64,000 bases of DNA from Escherichia coli (lineage in GTDB: Bacteria; Pseudomonadota; Gammaproteobacteria; Enterobacterales; Enterobacteriaceae), in NCBI RefSeq assembly GCF_003018255.1, contig NZ_CP027440.1. One strand, 5' to 3'. This document shows, in pieces, positions 24,540 through 56,502 of this stretch (position 1 is its first letter; every line of letters begins with the position of its first letter). The notes below the pieces were generated by a model. The model was not told the origin of the DNA. It did not search any database and saw only the letters and a list, made by a program, of their open reading frames with translations. The position numbers and the translations under genes were made by a program.

Positions 24540-24787
24540 CCTGGCTTTTTAGCTACCAATACACTGATTTAGCTTAATTTTTAAAACCCTCTCAACATAC
24601 AGTCGTTGATGAGAAAGGGTTATTGCGGAAATTAACTTCCGAATATAAGGTGACATTATGGTAATTGAATATTGGCTCTCCAATAATGCAGGAGGAAGTG
24701 TTACAGCTAACGGAATAGCAGGCAAGGTAACAATTCGGCAATTGGCTATTTTTAAGAATTATATTAAGTGTCATTCAATATGGTTTT

Positions 24788-24801
24788 TAGGAGTTTCTTT
24801 A
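24788..24801 (-). promoter_or_regulatory. candidate RcsAB box upstream of the cps promoter
   Basis: Minus-strand sequence TAAAGAAACTCCTA resembles the RcsAB consensus TaAGaatatTCctA; placement relative to the transcription start not verified. Confidence 0.4.
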
Positions 24802-25007
24802 GGTTGACAATATTTAATATAGTGTCTCCACATGCGATATTTCTTAAATAATGTTTTATTATTACCACTTTTAATTCAGGGATAATGTGAGGTTATAAAC
24901 CTCAAATAATATGAGATAAATAGTGCTGCAACATTGCATTTTTGCCCCGATTTATCCATGATCGAATTGTGACATTTGTCATACAACGAATAGGTTTTGT
25001 ACTTACT

Positions 25008-30843: not shown

Positions 30844-33800
30844 ATGAGCAAACAATCACAGCATGTATTAATTGCCCTGCCCCACCCGCTGCTTCACCTG
30901 GTCAGTTTAGGTTTAGTCTCGTTTATCTTTACCCTTTTCTCGCTTGAGCTTTCGCAGTTTGGCACCCAACTCGCCCCACTGTGGTTCCCGACGTCCATCA
31001 TGATGGTGGCGTTTTATCGCCATGCCGGGCGCATGTGGCCGGGGATTGCGCTGAGCTGCTCGCTGGGAAATATCGCCGCATCCATCCTGCTTTTTTCCAC
31101 CAGCTCGCTGAACATGACCTGGACGACCATCAATATTGTTGAAGCCGTGGTCGGGGCAGTGCTACTGCGTAAATTGCTGCCGTGGTATAACCCATTGCAA
31201 AATCTGGCTGACTGGCTGCGTCTGGCACTCGGCAGCGCCATTGTTCCACCTCTGTTAGGGGGTGTTCTGGTTATCCTGCTGACGCCCGGAGACGATCCTC
31301 TCAGGGCATTTTTGATATGGGTACTGTCAGAATCCATCGGCGCACTGGCACTGGTGCCGCTGGGATTGTTATTTAAACCACACTATCTGCTGCGCCATCG
31401 CAACCCACGGTTGCTTTTTGAGTCGCTGCTCACGTTAGCCATCACACTGACGTTAAGCTGGCTTTCGATGCTGTATCTGCCGTGGCCTTTTACTTTCATT
31501 ATTGTGCTGTTGATGTGGAGCGCCGTGCGCCTGCCACGAATGGAAGCCTTTTTGATCTTCCTTACCACGGTGATGATGGTGTCACTGATGATGGCCGCGG
31601 ATCCCTCCCTGCTTGCTACGCCGCGTACATACCTGATGAGCCATATGCCGTGGCTACCGTTTTTGCTGATCCTGCTGCCCGCCAACATCATGACCATGGT
31701 GATGTATGCCTTTCGTGCGGAACGCAAACACATTTCCGAAAGCGAAACCCGCTTTCGGAACGCGATGGAATATTCCGCCATCGGCATGGCATTAGTGGGC
31801 ACCGAGGGACAATGGCTGCAATCCAACAAAGCGCTCTGCCAGTTTCTCGGTTACAGTCAGGAAGAGCTGCGCGGACTCACCTTTCAGCAACTGACCTGGC
31901 CGGAGGATCTCAATAAAGATCTGCAACAGGTTGAAAAGCTGATCAGCGGTGAAATAAACACCTATTCAATGGAAAAACGCTACTACAACCGCAATGGCGA
32001 TGTTGTCTGGGCGTTGCTTGCCGTCTCACTGGTGCGCCACACCGATGGTACGCCGCTCTATTTTATCGCTCAGATTGAAGACATTAACGAGCTAAAACGC
32101 ACCGAACAGGTGAACCAGCAACTGATGGAGCGCATCACGCTGGCTAACGAAGCGGGCGGGATTGGCATCTGGGAGTGGGAGCTAAAGCCGAATATTTTTA
32201 GCTGGGATAAGCGGATGTTCGAGCTGTATGAAATTCCTCCGCATATCAAACCGAACTGGCAGGTGTGGTACGAGTGCGTACTGCCGGAAGATCGCCAGCA
32301 TGCCGAAAAAGTGATTCGTGATTCGTTGCAATCACGCTCGCCCTTTAAGCTGGAATTTCGCATTGCCGTGAAAGATGGCATCCGCCATATCCGCGCCCTC
32401 GCCAACCGGGTACTGAATAAAGAAGGCGAAGTCGAACGCCTGCTCGGCATTAATATGGATATGACCGAAGTGAAACAGCTTAACGAGGCATTGTTTCAGG
32501 AAAAAGAGCGCCTGCACATTACGCTGGATTCCATCGGCGAAGCCGTGGTCTGTATTGATATGGCAATGAAAATTACCTTTATGAATCCGGTGGCGGAGAA
32601 GATGAGCGGCTGGACGCAGGAAGAAGCGTTAGGTGTTCCGCTCCTGACGGTGTTGCATATTACTTTTGGCGACAACGGACCATTAATGGAGAACATTTAC
32701 AGTGCCGACACCTCACGTTCCGCGATTGAACAAGATGTGGTGTTGCACTGTCGGAGCGGCGGCAGCTACGACGTGCATTACAGTATTACGCCGTTAAGTA
32801 CTCTGGACGGCAGCAATATAGGCTCGGTTCTGGTGATTCAGGACGTCACCGAATCGCGTAAAATGCTGCGCCAGCTGAGCTACAGCGCCTCCCATGATGC
32901 ACTGACGCATCTCGCCAATCGCGCCAGTTTTGAGAAGCAACTACGCATCCTGCTGCAAACGGTAAACAGTACACATCAGCGACATGCACTGGTGTTTATC
33001 GATCTTGATCGCTTTAAAGCGGTGAATGACAGCGCCGGGCACGCCGCTGGCGACGCTTTACTGCGCGAACTGGCGTCATTGATGCTGAGTATGCTGCGCT
33101 CCAGCGACGTGCTGGCGCGACTCGGTGGCGATGAATTTGGTCTGCTGCTGCCAGATTGTAATGTCGAAAGTGCGCGTTTTATCGCTACACGCATTATCAG
33201 CGCCGTGAATGACTATCACTTTATCTGGGAAGGACGTGTACATCGGGTAGGTGCCAGTGCCGGGATTACCTTGATTGATGACAACAATCATCAGGCGGCT
33301 GAAGTGATGTCGCAGGCTGATATCGCCTGTTATGCCTCCAAAAATGGTGGACGGGGCCGGGTGACGGTTTACGAACCGCAGCAAGCTGCCGCACATAGCG
33401 AACGGGCGGTGATGTCGCTTGATGAACAGTGGCGGATGATTAAAGAGAATCAGTTGATGATGATCGCCCACGGTGTCGCTTCGCCGCGGATCCCGGAAGC
33501 GCGTAATTTGTGGCTGATTTCACTTAAGCTCTGGAGTTGCGAAGGCGAGATTATTGATGAACAAACATTTCGTCGTAGCTTCAGCGATCCGGCACTTAGC
33601 CATGCTCTTGACCGACGGGTATTCCACGATTTTTTCCAGCAGGCCGCAAAAGCGATTGCCAGTAAAGGCTTAAGCATCGCCCTCCCCCTTTCCGTTGCCG
33701 GTTTGAGTAGCGCCACGCTGGTGAATGAACTGCTTGAGCAGCTGGAAAATAGCCCTCTACCCCCACGGTTATTACATCTGATTATTCCGGCAGACGCGAT

Positions 33801-34161
33801 TTTAGATCACGCAGAAAGCGTGCAAAAACTGCGGCTGGCGGGATGTCGGATCGTATTCAGTCAGGTGGGCCGCGATCTGCAAATCTTCAACTCGCTGAAA
33901 GCGAATATGGCAGATTACCTGCTACTTGATGGTGAGTTATGCGCCAATGTGCAGGGAAATTTGATGGATGAGATGCTGATTACGATCATTCAGGGGCACG
34001 CTCAGCGGCTCGGGATGAAGACCATCGCCGGGCCAGTAGTTTTACCCCTGGTGATGGATACGCTTTCTGGCATCGGCGTCGATCTGATTTATGGCGATGT
34101 GATTGCCGATGCCCAACCGCTGGATTTGCTGGTGAATAGCAGTTATTTCGCGATTAACTGA
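30844..34161 (+). CDS. dgcE: membrane-anchored PAS-GGDEF-EAL protein (diguanylate cyclase DgcE/YegE)
   Basis: 1105 aa ORF; N-terminal multi-TM region, PAS repeats, GGDEF motif (RLGGDEFGLLL) and a degenerate EAL-like C-terminus. Confidence 0.88.
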   Translation: MSKQSQHVLIALPHPLLHLVSLGLVSFIFTLFSLELSQFGTQLAPLWFPTSIMMVAFYRHAGRMWPGIALSCSLGNIAASILLFSTSSLNMTWTTINIVEAVVGAVLLRKLLPWYNPLQNLADWLRLALGSAIVPPLLGGVLVILLTPGDDPLRAFLIWVLSESIGALALVPLGLLFKPHYLLRHRNPRLLFESLLTLAITLTLSWLSMLYLPWPFTFIIVLLMWSAVRLPRMEAFLIFLTTVMMVSLMMAADPSLLATPRTYLMSHMPWLPFLLILLPANIMTMVMYAFRAERKHISESETRFRNAMEYSAIGMALVGTEGQWLQSNKALCQFLGYSQEELRGLTFQQLTWPEDLNKDLQQVEKLISGEINTYSMEKRYYNRNGDVVWALLAVSLVRHTDGTPLYFIAQIEDINELKRTEQVNQQLMERITLANEAGGIGIWEWELKPNIFSWDKRMFELYEIPPHIKPNWQVWYECVLPEDRQHAEKVIRDSLQSRSPFKLEFRIAVKDGIRHIRALANRVLNKEGEVERLLGINMDMTEVKQLNEALFQEKERLHITLDSIGEAVVCIDMAMKITFMNPVAEKMSGWTQEEALGVPLLTVLHITFGDNGPLMENIYSADTSRSAIEQDVVLHCRSGGSYDVHYSITPLSTLDGSNIGSVLVIQDVTESRKMLRQLSYSASHDALTHLANRASFEKQLRILLQTVNSTHQRHALVFIDLDRFKAVNDSAGHAAGDALLRELASLMLSMLRSSDVLARLGGDEFGLLLPDCNVESARFIATRIISAVNDYHFIWEGRVHRVGASAGITLIDDNNHQAAEVMSQADIACYASKNGGRGRVTVYEPQQAAAHSERAVMSLDEQWRMIKENQLMMIAHGVASPRIPEARNLWLISLKLWSCEGEIIDEQTFRRSFSDPALSHALDRRVFHDFFQQAAKAIASKGLSIALPLSVAGLSSATLVNELLEQLENSPLPPRLLHLIIPADAILDHAESVQKLRLAGCRIVFSQVGRDLQIFNSLKANMADYLLLDGELCANVQGNLMDEMLITIIQGHAQRLGMKTIAGPVVLPLVMDTLSGIGVDLIYGDVIADAQPLDLLVNSSYFAIN

Positions 34162-34175
34162 GGCGTGCTTCTCCA

Positions 34176-34262
34176 TCGCCTGATACGACGCTAACGCGTC
34201 TTATCAGGCCTACAAATCGCTCATTCCCCAGGCCGGATAAGGCGCTCGCACCGCATCCGGCG
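34176..34262. repeat. REP element pair between dgcE and alkA
   Basis: gcctgatacgacgctaacgcgtcttatcaggcctac ... ggccggataaggcgctcgcaccgcatccggc. Confidence 0.8.
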
Positions 34263-34269
34263 ACCAACG

Positions 34270-35118
34270 TCATGCTTCGTCTGGTTGCCAGCCTTCCGTA
34301 TACCAGATATGCAACAGCGCATAAGAACGCAAGGGCTTCCAGCGTTCGGCATAACGGCGGATTTGTGCCGGTGTCATTCCCGGAAATCGCTGTTTAATCA
34401 GATAATCATCCGGCAGGAAAACATCTTTCGCCTGCCAGCCGCGCAAGGCGAAATAATTCGCCGTCCAGCGCCCGATACCCGGAAAAGTTTGCAGCGTTTT
34501 CATCGCCTGCTCCACATCGCCCGGTATTGTCATTGGTAAGGTGCCCTCCAGCGCCGCATTTGCCAGATGAATCAGCGCCTCTGCCCGTTTCAACGGCATA
34601 CCTAACGCTTTTAATGCCTGCGGATCTGCTGCTGCCAGCCGCTGAGGCGTGGGGAAGCAGACATAATCCGGAAAATCATCCAGCCTTTCGCCATAAAGCT
34701 GTGCCACTCTGGCGGTCAATTTTGCCGCCATCGCCACGCTCACCAGCTGGCCTAAAATCGCCCGCACGCCCTGCTCAAAAGCATCAACACAACCGGGTAA
34801 ACGCAATCCGGGCCGTGCCGCGCCTAACTTGCCCAACGCACCGTTAACAATCTGCGGGTTACATTGCAGATCAAACAGGCGGCTCATTTTCGCCAGACAC
34901 TCTGCGGCAACGGGTTCTAAACCTGCACTTAAATTTATGTGCAGAGTATGGCTGGCTATATCCGGAATAGCAGTCACCACGCCGCGACATTCGCCCACCG
35001 CCAGACTACGGGCATAATAATCGTCAGCGACCGTTTCCACACCGTTCACCGCACGGGCGGCGAGAAATCCCAACATCCACGACCAGTCATACGGCGGCTG
35101 CCAGTTCAGGGTATACAT
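34270..35118 (-). CDS. alkA: 3-methyladenine DNA glycosylase II
   Basis: 282 aa ORF (MYTLNWQPPYDWSWMLGFLAARAV...). Confidence 0.92.
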   Translation of the reverse strand: MYTLNWQPPYDWSWMLGFLAARAVNGVETVADDYYARSLAVGECRGVVTAIPDIASHTLHINLSAGLEPVAAECLAKMSRLFDLQCNPQIVNGALGKLGAARPGLRLPGCVDAFEQGVRAILGQLVSVAMAAKLTARVAQLYGERLDDFPDYVCFPTPQRLAAADPQALKALGMPLKRAEALIHLANAALEGTLPMTIPGDVEQAMKTLQTFPGIGRWTANYFALRGWQAKDVFLPDDYLIKQRFPGMTPAQIRRYAERWKPLRSYALLHIWYTEGWQPDEA

Positions 35119-53167: not shown

Positions 53168-54529
53168 ATGTTTAAACCGGAACTCCTTTCCCCGGCGGGA
53201 ACGCTGAAAAATATGCGTTACGCTTTCGCTTATGGCGCAGATGCTGTTTATGCGGGCCAGCCGCGTTACTCCCTGCGTGTGCGCAACAACGAATTCAACC
53301 ACGAAAATCTTCAGCTCGGCATCAATGAAGCCCACGCGCTGGGGAAAAAGTTTTATGTCGTGGTCAACATTGCACCGCACAACGCCAAGCTGAAAACCTT
53401 TATCCGTGACCTGAAACCGGTGGTGGAAATGGGGCCGGATGCGCTAATAATGTCCGATCCAGGGCTGATTATGCTGGTGCGTGAGCACTTCCCTGAAATG
53501 CCGATCCATCTCTCGGTACAGGCTAACGCCGTGAACTGGGCGACGGTGAAATTCTGGCAGCAAATGGGACTGACCCGCGTGATCCTCTCTCGCGAGCTGT
53601 CGCTGGAAGAGATTGAAGAGATCCGCAATCAGGTGCCAGATATGGAGGTAGAGATCTTCGTTCACGGCGCGCTGTGCATGGCCTACTCTGGTCGCTGCCT
53701 GCTCTCTGGCTACATCAACAAGCGCGATCCGAATCAGGGCACCTGCACTAACGCCTGCCGCTGGGAGTACAACGTCCAGGAAGGCAAAGAAGATGACGTT
53801 GGCAACATCGTACACAAGTACGAGCCAATTCCGGTGCAAAATGTTGAGCCGACGCTGGGTATCGGCGCACCAACTGACAAAGTGTTTATGATCGAAGAAG
53901 CCCAGCGTCCGGGCGAGTATATGACCGCGTTTGAAGATGAGCACGGCACTTACATCATGAACTCGAAAGATCTGCGCGCCATCGCCCATGTAGAACGCCT
54001 GACCAAAATGGGCGTGCATTCGCTGAAAATCGAAGGTCGTACCAAATCTTTCTACTATTGCGCACGCACCGCGCAGGTTTACCGTAAAGCTATCGATGAC
54101 GCCGCTGCGGGAAAACCATTCGATACCAGCCTGCTGGAAACTCTGGAAGGTCTGGCGCATCGTGGCTATACCGAAGGTTTCCTGCGTCGTCATACTCACG
54201 ACGATTATCAGAACTACGAATACGGTTATTCAGTTTCTGACCGCCAGCAGTTTGTTGGTGAGTTTACCGGTGAGCGCAAGGGCGACCTCGCGGCGGTAGC
54301 GGTGAAAAATAAATTCTCCGTTGGCGACAGTCTTGAGCTGATGACGCCGCAAGGGAACATTAACTTTACCCTTGAGCATATGGAAAACGCCAAAGGTGAA
54401 GCTATGCCGGTCGCACCAGGCGATGGTTATACTGTGTGGATCCCGGTGCCGCAGGATCTTGAGCTAAATTACGCGCTGCTGATGCGTAATTTCTCCGGGG
54501 AAACCACGCGTAACCCCCACGGTAAGTGA
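53168..54529 (+). CDS. yegQ: U32-family peptidase-like protein YegQ (tRNA hydroxylation protein TrhP)
   Basis: 453 aa ORF (MFKPELLSPAGTLKNMRYAFAYGADAVYAG...). Confidence 0.9.
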   Translation: MFKPELLSPAGTLKNMRYAFAYGADAVYAGQPRYSLRVRNNEFNHENLQLGINEAHALGKKFYVVVNIAPHNAKLKTFIRDLKPVVEMGPDALIMSDPGLIMLVREHFPEMPIHLSVQANAVNWATVKFWQQMGLTRVILSRELSLEEIEEIRNQVPDMEVEIFVHGALCMAYSGRCLLSGYINKRDPNQGTCTNACRWEYNVQEGKEDDVGNIVHKYEPIPVQNVEPTLGIGAPTDKVFMIEEAQRPGEYMTAFEDEHGTYIMNSKDLRAIAHVERLTKMGVHSLKIEGRTKSFYYCARTAQVYRKAIDDAAAGKPFDTSLLETLEGLAHRGYTEGFLRRHTHDDYQNYEYGYSVSDRQQFVGEFTGERKGDLAAVAVKNKFSVGDSLELMTPQGNINFTLEHMENAKGEAMPVAPGDGYTVWIPVPQDLELNYALLMRNFSGETTRNPHGK

Positions 54530-54561
54530 TTAATTTCGATTATTTTTCCCGGATGGAAAAT

Positions 54562-54583
54562 TCTTAGAAACCGATCACATACA
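54562..54583 (+). promoter_or_regulatory. candidate CRP site centred near -41.5 of the cyaR promoter
   Basis: Perfect TCACA half-site with the other half degenerate; -10 TATCAT at 54601-54606; CyaR is known to be CRP-activated. Confidence 0.45.
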
Positions 54584-54613
54584 GCTGCATTTATTAAGGT
54601 TATCATCCGTTTC

Positions 54614-54700
54614 GCTGAAAAACATAACCCATAAAATGCTAGCTGTACCAGGAACCACCTCCTTAGCCTGTGTAATCTCCCTTACACGGGCTTATTTTTT
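54614..54700 (+). ncRNA. cyaR: CyaR (RyeE) Hfq-dependent sRNA
   Basis: 87-nt sequence gctgaaaaacataacccataaaatgctagctgtaccaggaaccacctccttagcctgtgtaatctcccttacacgggcttatttttt matches recalled CyaR, including terminator hairpin and U-tail. Confidence 0.88.
54674..54700. other. bacteriophage P2 attB core (locI), unoccupied
   Basis: Reverse complement is AAAAAATAAGCCCGTGTAAGGGAGATT, the 27-bp P2 att core as I recall it; overlaps the CyaR terminator. Confidence 0.55.
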
Positions 54701-54870
54701 ATACATAAACCATAGAGACGGATTGATCCCAGGTCACCGTCTTCCATTGACCACATCGATAGAATCTCCCTTCATAGCACGATGCCTTTCACGTAACGGC
54801 ATCGTGCTCGCACAGGTTCCGGCTAAGCACAACCAGAACGCGGATGTTTGACGCTTACCAAAAAATATTC

Positions 54871-55188
54871 TCACTCTCCACATTTGAATGTCAGACGAGC
54901 GACGCCATGTAATCCTGCACCTTCTGTCTTCAGGTCAACTATCTGCATTTTTTTGCCCTGAGTAACACAGAAATGAACTGCATCATTTTTTACTATATTT
55001 TCTGCACCAGATATTCTACCCCTGGCTAAAGAAGCTTCGGCTTCGGTGTAGTATTGGTTATCGAGTTTACGCTGAATATTACTTTTATATGCAAGACCAA
55101 ATTTACCGATACTTGTCTCATCATTATGTACAGCACACCCAGACATAAGAAAAACACTAATTAATGATATAGCAGCTATCTTTTTCAT
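54871..55188 (-). CDS. yegR: small lipoprotein YegR
   Basis: 105 aa from MKKIAAISLISVFLMSGC (lipobox); track ORF extends upstream to 55248. Confidence 0.75.
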   Translation of the reverse strand: MKKIAAISLISVFLMSGCAVHNDETSIGKFGLAYKSNIQRKLDNQYYTEAEASLARGRISGAENIVKNDAVHFCVTQGKKMQIVDLKTEGAGLHGVARLTFKCGE

Positions 55189-55602
55189 CTCACCTTCCCC
55201 CATTAAATACCAACGACACGCTCTGGTGTTTAAATATAATAATGGCATGATTATTATAATTGAATAGGATTATAATAAATGTTCTGTACAACATTTCCTA
55301 CATAAGTAGGAATTACATACACGGATGCCCTTCCAGGTAACCCCATGGGGGGGTTAATATATTTTTAATAGTATATTGAAGATGCCACTGTTTAGTTGAA
55401 TATTAGGTATATGTTCTTTTTTGAAATTTACCGGTGGCTACCGTTAATATTCGCTGTTCCCATTGCAAGCTCCTGGTGGTAACCACTGAATCCTCCATAC
55501 TTGAACTGACTTTTTATCCTCCGACTTTCATCCTGTTCTGACTCCACCTTTTCTTTTCTGCTCTACACTATCTACAGTCCAATCATAAAGGCACATACGA
55601 TC

Positions 55603-56502
55603 ATGGCAGAATTTCCCGCCAGCTTACTGATTCTTAATGGCAAAAGTACTGACAATCTACCCTTGCGCGAAGCAATTATGCTGTTGCGTGAGGAAGGAAT
55701 GACGATCCATGTGCGGGTCACCTGGGAGAAAGGCGATGCCGCACGATATGTAGAGGAGGCACGGAAGTTGGGCGTCGCAACGGTGATTGCCGGTGGTGGC
55801 GATGGCACCATTAATGAAGTTTCTACGGCGTTGATTCAGTGTGAGGGGGATGACATACCCGCGCTGGGAATTTTACCATTAGGAACCGCCAATGATTTTG
55901 CCACCAGTGTAGGGATTCCTGAGGCACTGGATAAGGCGCTGAAACTGGCAATTGCCGGTAACGCCATTGCGATAGATATGGCGCAGGTCAATAAACAAAC
56001 CTGTTTTATTAATATGGCGACAGGCGGATTTGGGACGCGTATTACCACAGAAACGCCGGAAAAATTAAAAGCCGCGCTGGGTGGCGTCTCTTACATCATT
56101 CATGGCTTAATGCGCATGGATACTCTGCAACCGGACCGTTGTGAGATCCGCGGTGAAAACTTTCACTGGCAAGGTGACGCCCTGGTCATTGGTATTGGTA
56201 ACGGGCGTCAGGCCGGTGGCGGTCAGCAATTGTGCCCGAACGCGTTAATTAACGATGGCTTGCTGCAACTGCGCATTTTTACCGGCGATGAAATTCTTCC
56301 AGCTCTCGTATCAACCTTAAAATCTGACGAAGATAACCCGAATATTATCGAAGGCGCTTCGTCGTGGTTTGATATACAAGCCCCACACGAAATCACTTTT
56401 AATCTTGATGGCGAACCGTTGAGCGGACAAAACTTTCATATTGAAATACTTCCGGCGGCGTTGCGTTGTCGATTACCACCAGATTGTCCATTGTTGCGTT
56501 AA
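55603..56502 (+). CDS. yegS: lipid kinase YegS (DAGK-catalytic family)
   Basis: 299 aa ORF ([15 protein letters not shown]...GGDGT). Confidence 0.9.

Follow-up and report, generated by a model that had tools for sequence, protein, structure and literature searches.

A probable three-layer mosaic in the yegR-yegS spacer of Escherichia coli: an EvgA-box yegR promoter, decaying filler and an ancestral yegS promoter

The spacer between the divergent genes yegR and yegS was found, with high probability, to be a mosaic regulatory region of three layers rather than the home of a hidden gene. These layers are a yegR promoter with an EvgA box, decaying filler, and an ancestral yegS promoter. The palindrome that is conserved in this spacer is the EvgA box and not the GC palindrome to its right, which most likely has no function.

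Results

The yegR-yegS locus

The features found at this locus are listed in Table 1. The window, meaning the whole 64-kb stretch of DNA that was analyzed, had been the subject of a preliminary description made from the sequence alone, and much of that description was supported. Open reading frames and RefSeq annotation both gave a divergent yegR-yegS spacer of 414 bp (55189-55602), and RefSeq places the same flanking genes around a 100% identical spacer in strain 2017.09.02CC. The spacer is AT-rich, as described, and contains the AT tract that had been quoted from it. Its GC content is 37.4% vs 52.1% for the window, and only 1.3% of the 414-bp windows in the 64 kb are as AT-rich. The AT-richest 414-bp stretch of the window lies elsewhere, at ~24541-24954, with a GC content of 32.6%, below that of the yegR-yegS spacer. 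The string described as a GC palindrome is present at 55338-55356. The remark that the spacer is of the kind bound by silencing proteins agrees with published genomic SELEX data, in which the spacer was marked with an H-NS site and was also bound in vitro by RpoD holoenzyme (Shimada 2014, PMC3946193). Lastly, the spacer does lie next to a prophage attachment locus, the P2-type site at the 3' end of cyaR.

In strains with a P2-like prophage, the integrase end lies between cyaR and yegR. The strain studied here has an intact cyaR and no prophage between cyaR and yegR (54612-54702). K-12 has the ogrK-yegZ remnant between these genes, and in 2017.09.02CC the same site holds a complete end of a P2-like prophage (cox, C, int). 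YegR was compared to Pfam and no family scored above threshold. Inverted repeats were enriched in the spacer, with six perfect repeats of 7-bp arms seen and 0.22 expected.

Table 1. Coordinates of the features at the yegR-yegS locus (window positions)
Feature	Position	Strand	Evidence or description
trhP/yegQ counterpart	53168-54529	plus	ORF
CyaR (RyeE) sRNA gene	54612-54697	plus	Rfam RF00112, 100.7 bits, E 1.6e-20, full length
Intact P2-type attachment core	54674-54702	plus	AATCTCCCTTACACGGGCTTATTTTTTAT; CyaR terminator and left boundary of the islet
AT-rich islet	54703-55517		815 bp, 39.3% GC; yegR and 329 bp of spacer, with the yegR control region, GC palindrome and fossil attachment junction
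yegR	54871-55188	minus	ORF and RefSeq 'protein YegR' / 'lipoprotein YegR'; 105-aa predicted lipoprotein
yegR promoter region	55229-55315	minus	Highly conserved, pi 0.015-0.047 vs 0.13-0.20 in the adjoining patch; 19% GC at 55229-55300
EvgA box	55295-55312		TTCCTACA-TA-AGTAGGAA (TTCCTACATAAGTAGGAA); 18-bp inverted repeat, conserved palindrome of the spacer
Hypervariable patch	55317-55372		GC palindrome, G-run and T-run; diversity peak of the locus in allele alignments
GC palindrome	55338-55356	plus	taaccccatgggggggtta / TAACCCCATGGGGGGGTTA (TAACCCC-ATGGG-GGGGTTA); perfect 7-bp arms, 5-nt loop
Prophage fossil, integrase-proximal P2-like end	55441-55517	plus	Ends in a degenerate core at 55489-55517, AATCCTCCATACTTGAACTGACTTTTTAT
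Ancestral yegS promoter and 27-nt 5' UTR	55518-55602	plus	-10 TACACT at 55564-55569, TSS 55576; pi <= 0.03
yegS	55603-56502	plus	ORF and RefSeq annotation; lipid kinase

The EvgA box and the yegR promoter

The consensus of the EvgA box was assumed to be TTCYTACA-N2-TGTARGAA (TTCYTACANNTGTARGAA), and this assumption was tested by looking for motif matches upstream of genes reported as EvgA targets. In K-12, a search of 26 kb that allowed up to two mismatches gave sites upstream of emrK/evgA, frc, yfdX, safA, and ydeP, and no others. The site in the yegR-yegS spacer has one mismatch to TTCYTACANNTGTARGAA and is the sole site with two or fewer mismatches in the 64-kb window, where we estimate that about 0.07 such matches would be expected by chance. 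This box had not been mentioned in the preliminary description and lies 26 bp to the left of the GC palindrome, counted as the gap between the two motifs. All seven arm pairs were invariant across 13 distinct alleles. In a lineage that is 78% identical, the arms of the box persist and the central 4 nt have changed from ATAA to GTTT.

These findings can be set beside published data on EvgA. According to a review, the yegR promoter is bound by EvgA, and four of the K-12 genes with the pattern are named as EvgA-bound in the same review (PMC8147483). In a K-12 transcriptome, yegR was induced 11.9-fold along with yfdX and ydeO (PMC5811628), and its co-induction is reported with yfdX, ydeO, and frc (PMC8147483, PMC5811628).

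On the yegR (minus) strand, a consensus TATAAT is found at 55274-55269, 20 bp beyond the EvgA box in the direction of yegR. This is the predicted -10 element of yegR, and it would put the yegR start near 55262 and the center of the EvgA box near -41.5. A box-to-(-10) spacing common to EvgA promoters was sought and not found; the other EvgA promoters do not have the same spacing. Two more perfect inverted repeats were seen in the yegR promoter. AAATGTT-CTGTAC-AACATTT (55277-55296) abuts the EvgA box, and is kept in typical E. coli and broken in the N96 and SCPM-O-B-8794 lineages. The other, ATAATAAT-GGCATG-ATTATTAT, is located at 55236-55257.

Form and stability of the GC palindrome

A terminator scan flagged the GC palindrome as terminator-like on the plus strand, although the scan is permissive and the placement of the T-run is atypical. 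The stem is followed by ATATATTTTT (55357-55366), in which five T's begin 6 nt past the stem and the T-run is interrupted. Two sites were flagged in the region and 0.8 would be expected by chance; the second site is a genuine terminator, that of CyaR. In 17% of dinucleotide shuffles of the spacer, one or more perfect inverted repeats of the size of the GC palindrome arose and, therefore, the GC palindrome alone is not statistically remarkable. The excess stability expected of a Rho-independent terminator was also not found when the hairpin was compared to shuffled sequences. For the 41-nt hairpin, the folding energy was -10.3 kcal/mol (z = +0.26), a stability equaled or surpassed by 114 of the 200 shuffles. 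The CyaR terminator, which is 650 bp from the GC palindrome and served as a control, folds at -15.9 kcal/mol with z = -6.3.

Conservation of the GC palindrome across E. coli

A search of 5,426 complete E. coli genomes found the spacer in 5,423 of them, though most copies were only 90-95% identical to the window. A diversity profile was drawn from the window and 12 genomes chosen across the identity range. In this profile, of which the shape alone is meaningful as absolute pi is inflated, pi was 0.13-0.20 in the hypervariable patch with 12-17 segregating sites per 30 bp, compared to 0.015-0.05 in yegR and its promoter and no more than 0.03 in the yegS promoter. The GC palindrome, therefore, sits within the most polymorphic 55 bp of the locus. 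Its two central stem pairs (57-71 and 58-70) are broken in 9/12 alleles, as counted over 13 distinct alleles. In K-12, the counterpart of the spacer is NC_000913.3 2168307-2168711. Nearly all the differences between K-12 and the window fall within 55317-55372, and the K-12 palindrome is degraded to TAACTCCATGGGGGCTTTA, with 9 bp of the T-run missing. In the divergent SCPM-O-B-8794 lineage, the GC palindrome is absent and yegR and the EvgA box remain.

The same picture was seen in the larger set of genomes. An identity of 95% or more to the 101-bp patch was seen in only 652 genomes, and the intact GC stem is present in roughly 10% of the 5,426 E. coli genomes, a share that is based on spot checks in which alleles of at least 97% identity carried an intact stem (G-run of 6 or 7). 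At least 2,554 genomes carry the degraded K-12-type form; the deletion of the T-run was counted in about 2,013. A lack of conservation of the palindrome had been named in the preliminary description as a refuting result, and this is what was seen: given its place in the most polymorphic 55 bp and its broken stems, the palindrome shows no conservation. A possible covariation in the hairpin (C-G, U-G, and U-A in the window, K-12, and O157) was considered and rejected because the core is only 3-4 bp long and several G-run registers can be drawn. The formal count also has the stem broken in most alleles. In the minority of strains with the intact allele, there is a slim chance that the GC palindrome is, at best, an incidental weak terminator.

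The yegS promoter

The transcription start site (TSS) of yegS was mapped to position 2166709 of NC_000913.2, which leaves 27 nt before the ATG (Kim 2012, PMC3415461, supplementary file 2). The published yegS upstream sequence matches the window, with one substitution between the K-12 and window alleles, and this places the TSS at 55576. Since the TSS and its -10 element (55564-55569) both lie in the last part of the spacer, yegS is independent of the AT-rich distal spacer. The yegS promoter segment is conserved beside cyaR in other Escherichia.

Transcripts and reading frames in the spacer

The preliminary description had also suggested that the spacer could hold an unannotated small RNA or a small ORF. 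Neither of these was found. An Rfam scan of 54300-56000 by E-value returned only CyaR, which is outside the spacer, and two chance-level matches (E > 5). The GC hairpin is no more stable than its shuffles and is not conserved. A promoter and terminator kept among close relatives, as would be expected of an sRNA, were not found either, with the stem broken in 9/12 alleles and the T-run deleted in about 2,013 genomes. The region has six promoter-like sites and 3.7 +/- 2.0 would be expected, which is no excess. An sRNA candidate in the 124-nt fold at 55247-55370 (z = -3.5) was rejected as its signal comes from inverted repeats at the DNA level, including the EvgA box. No ORF keeps its start and length across the alleles.

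TSS mapping had been proposed as a check on the spacer. It supported the absence of other transcripts to the extent of one TSS data set, in which the yegS start, 27 nt before the ATG, is the only one listed for the spacer (Kim 2012). A condition-specific transcript that ends at the GC hairpin could exist outside the scope of this single data set.

The islet and its absence from relatives

The YegS-encoding loci of 57 species representatives were compared. In E. whittamii, two cryptic-clade Escherichia, Klebsiella, Enterobacter, Atlantibacter, several Citrobacter, and others, the homologue of 55518-55602 begins no more than about 10 bp past the T-run of CyaR. In E. albertii, this homologue follows the prophage-side attachment core. 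We refer to 54703-55517 as an islet because, at the junction, these relatives have neither yegR nor the first 329 bp of the spacer. In all, the islet is absent from 40 or more other enterobacterial species, where cyaR abuts yegS. Thus, judging from these comparisons, the islet would be found in E. coli and in a divergent lineage closely related to it.

Two alleles of this islet were deeply divergent. The allele of SCPM-O-B-8794 (locus L005, ~2100-2500) is about 78% identical to the window, and the spacer of N96 (locus L071, 2143-2624) gave a megablast match to the window over only 30% of its length. A locus 95% identical to that of E. coli was also present in a metagenome-assembled genome (MAG) labeled 'Citrobacter sp.' (L003, DXKH01000116.1). 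That MAG has a Citrobacter-type yegS contig as well (L011), and the yegR-yegS locus in it is likely due to contamination of the bin by E. coli.

Smaller differences were seen within the islet. Just right of the attachment core, the window and 2017.09.02CC (L001) share a 12-bp stretch ('AGAGACGGATTG', 54716-54727), with substitutions nearby, that none of the 10 other aligned E. coli sequences covering this position has. In AH20K059 and S8 (L062 and L063), ~180 bp of AT-rich DNA separates the yegR stop from the CCAAAAAA tract, at the equivalent of ~54865 in the window; the window and K-12 lack this insertion.

Attachment cores and the prophage fossil

The left boundary of the islet is a 29-nt core that we take to be identical to the attP core of P2. 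A second copy of this 29-mer is found at the integrase end of the prophage in 2017.09.02CC (L001 2486-2514), LS45, O157, and BKQ37E. The right junction of the islet coincides exactly with the end of a degenerate core (55489-55517), which matches the intact core at 20/29 positions. It is the only other 29-mer that scores 20/29 in the window on either strand.

The DNA beside the degenerate core resembles a phage arm. In N96, a targeted comparison with the resident P2-like prophage gave a match of 133 bp at 74% identity (E 1e-18) to the int stop-arm-core segment, running from the last int codons through the arm to the core. N96 has ~60 bp more than the window, which keeps the core-proximal half of the arm after a deletion of this size. 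The fossil arm of the window gave a local score of 26 against phage DNA, which is weak alone, and the call leans on N96 as an intermediate. A distant blastn search with the spacer and the N96 fossil against all phages found nothing beyond the prophage record ON470606.1, so the fossil call rests on the comparison with the prophage resident at the same site. A tblastn search for an integrase remnant in the spacer gave nothing better than E about 1.

With an attachment core at each end of the islet and a phage arm beside the distal core, the reading of the islet as a scar bounded by P2-type cores is well supported by sequence comparison, and we infer that yegR may have arrived with or inside an ancient prophage. 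We also considered yegR as a phage moron and rejected this idea. Its tblastn search against phages gave two matches, neither taken as a true phage homologue: one, ON470606.1, carries host flank and the other is a 2.4-kb partial 'Phage TP' record. No remnant phage gene was found inside the islet by the two tblastn searches. ON470606.1 (Escherichia phage vB_EcoM-720R8) contains host DNA past the integrase at 32187-34824 (yegR, the spacer, yegS, and gatR), and yegR and yegS are annotated as phage genes there because the record extends into host DNA. The plasmid matches of YegR include four chromosome-sized records (4.8-4.9 Mb) and smaller ones down to 5.8 kb.

Downstream of yegR, the segment 54763-54812 contains AATCTCCCTT, the first 10 nt of the attachment core. 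A strong stem-loop follows, AGCACGATGCC-N11-GGCATCGTGCT, without a T-run on either strand. A further decayed core is one possible reading of this segment; a structure for RNA processing or termination of yegR is another.

Discussion

Our results can be combined into the following proposal, in which the spacer would consist of two back-to-back control regions of different age, parted by decaying filler. The part from 55189 to about 55315 would be the yegR upstream region, extremely AT-rich and bound by H-NS, where the acid-responsive response regulator EvgA would switch on yegR through the EvgA box. From about 55317 to 55517, the spacer would be unconstrained filler of the same horizontally acquired islet. 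In this filler, the GC quasi-palindrome would be part of a mutational hot patch made of the G-run, the T-run, and the quasi-palindrome itself, and, at its right end, the filler would keep what is left of an ancient P2-type prophage, namely its decayed arm on the integrase side and its attachment core. The last part, 55518-55602, would be the ancestral yegS promoter with its own start at 55576, which in species free of the islet comes directly after the CyaR terminator.

Other explanations were weighed for the GC palindrome and its surroundings. It is decidedly unlikely, in our judgment, that the hairpin and T-run of the intact allele form a working Rho-independent terminator, which would end a plus-strand transcript of ~100-120 nt from promoter-like sites at 55213-55257 and act as an allele-specific sRNA or as an insulator of yegS against spurious islet promoters. 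The scan match is downstream of two promoter-like sites, ACGACA-16-TATAAT and TTTAAA-17-TATTAT, the latter of which is listed in Shimada 2014 as a rightward RpoD promoter of the spacer, and the 124 nt at 55247-55370 fold with z = -3.5. However, this z score arises from inverted repeats (the EvgA box and AT palindromes) that say nothing on strand or RNA, and the hairpin alone has a z of +0.26. The number of promoter-like sites shows no excess over chance, the T-run begins 6 nt past the stem and is interrupted, and there is no Rfam match. Furthermore, most alleles have a broken stem, ~2,000 genomes carry the T-run deletion, and the mapped yegS start is far downstream at 55576. We see only a faint likelihood that the approximately one in ten strains with an intact hairpin and T-run, including this one, carry a newly evolved, allele-specific intrinsic terminator that turns pervasive plus-strand islet transcription, either H-NS-repressed or divergent from the EvgA box, into a short stable RNA or shields yegS. 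If this were true, the intact allele would be a snapshot of the birth of an sRNA or terminator de novo on a prophage scar.

Another idea is that selection maintains the hypervariable patch, for example if the length of the G-tract tunes EvgA- or H-NS-dependent expression of yegR. The patch starts ~5 bp upstream of the EvgA box and the palindrome 26 bp upstream, the G-run varies from 4 to 7 among the alleles, and the diversity is about twice that of the adjoining, presumably neutral fossil arm, although alignment ambiguity near indels inflates pi. Tracts of 4-7 G's are short for high-frequency slippage, and the changes go beyond shifts in length to substitutions and a 9-bp deletion; on this sequence evidence, selection on the patch would be very unlikely. 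The perfect 7-bp arms of the palindrome, and the CCATGG or CCCCATGGGG cores kept in several alleles, might instead suggest an operator for a dimeric DNA-binding protein that controls yegR or yegS. This is highly improbable because the arms vary among alleles at the would-be contact positions, in sharp contrast with the invariant EvgA box, and the element is missing in the SCPM-O-B-8794 lineage despite the retained yegR and EvgA box. We give almost no credence to an unannotated small protein. Two candidate ORFs exist, one of 30 aa on the minus strand (55346-55254) and one of 35 aa with a GTG start on the plus strand (55434-55541), and the latter is kept in many E. coli alleles. However, in K-12 and others, the 30-aa ORF, whose ATG is inside the palindrome, either has no start or is cut down to 22 aa, and the 35-aa ORF has a frameshift in LS45 and S8 and no start in N96. 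Neither has a Shine-Dalgarno sequence upstream, and both fall within islet filler or fossil prophage DNA. The 35-aa ORF overlaps the fossil prophage arm and is probably no gene.

The spacer is ordinary, and its functional content, an EvgA-dependent, H-NS-bound yegR promoter and a short yegS promoter, is mostly already known. Our modest addition is evolutionary. yegR and two-thirds of the spacer make up an 815-bp islet between the core shared by CyaR and P2 and a decayed second core and, hence, the EvgA-controlled yegR was apparently acquired at a hotspot of phage integration. The control region that yegS has today is only the last 85 bp. This reading could guide the design of promoter fusions and the annotation of prophage boundaries at this locus; otherwise, it matters little beyond annotation.

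The locus can be compared to four known systems. Like the Rho-independent terminators and sRNAs of the CyaR kind, the GC palindrome is intergenic and has a GC-rich stem followed by T-rich sequence. It differs from them in its lack of excess stability (z of +0.26 vs -6.3), its interrupted and displaced T-run, the lack of a covariance-model match, and the lack of conservation even inside E. coli. The P2-type prophages at the 3' end of cyaR and the cryptic remnant PR-X of K-12 (ogrK-yegZ) share the attachment core with this locus. Both the resident prophages and the K-12 remnant occupy the space between cyaR and yegR, and the right end of the spacer is a decayed int-side arm and core of the same type. 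Unlike these, the spacer fossil is of greater age and is found beyond yegR. Annotations do not mark it as prophage, and no integrase coding remnant could be detected in it.

The yegR islet also resembles the acquired islets that are subject to xenogeneic silencing by H-NS. Its GC content is 39% against a background of 52%, it is restricted to a lineage, published SELEX data place H-NS binding in its spacer, and, by analogy, yegR would need a dedicated activator, EvgA, for its expression. It differs from such islets in being very small, with 815 bp and a single gene. Finally, the EvgA-activated acid-resistance promoters (ydeP, safA-ydeO, yfdX, frc, and emrKY/evgAS) share with yegR the 18-bp repeat TTCYTACA-N2-TGTARGAA upstream. 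The yegR box is different in that its right half-site begins with A instead of T and in that it sits on a recently acquired AT-rich islet. Nothing essential differs, and yegR is itself a member of this group.
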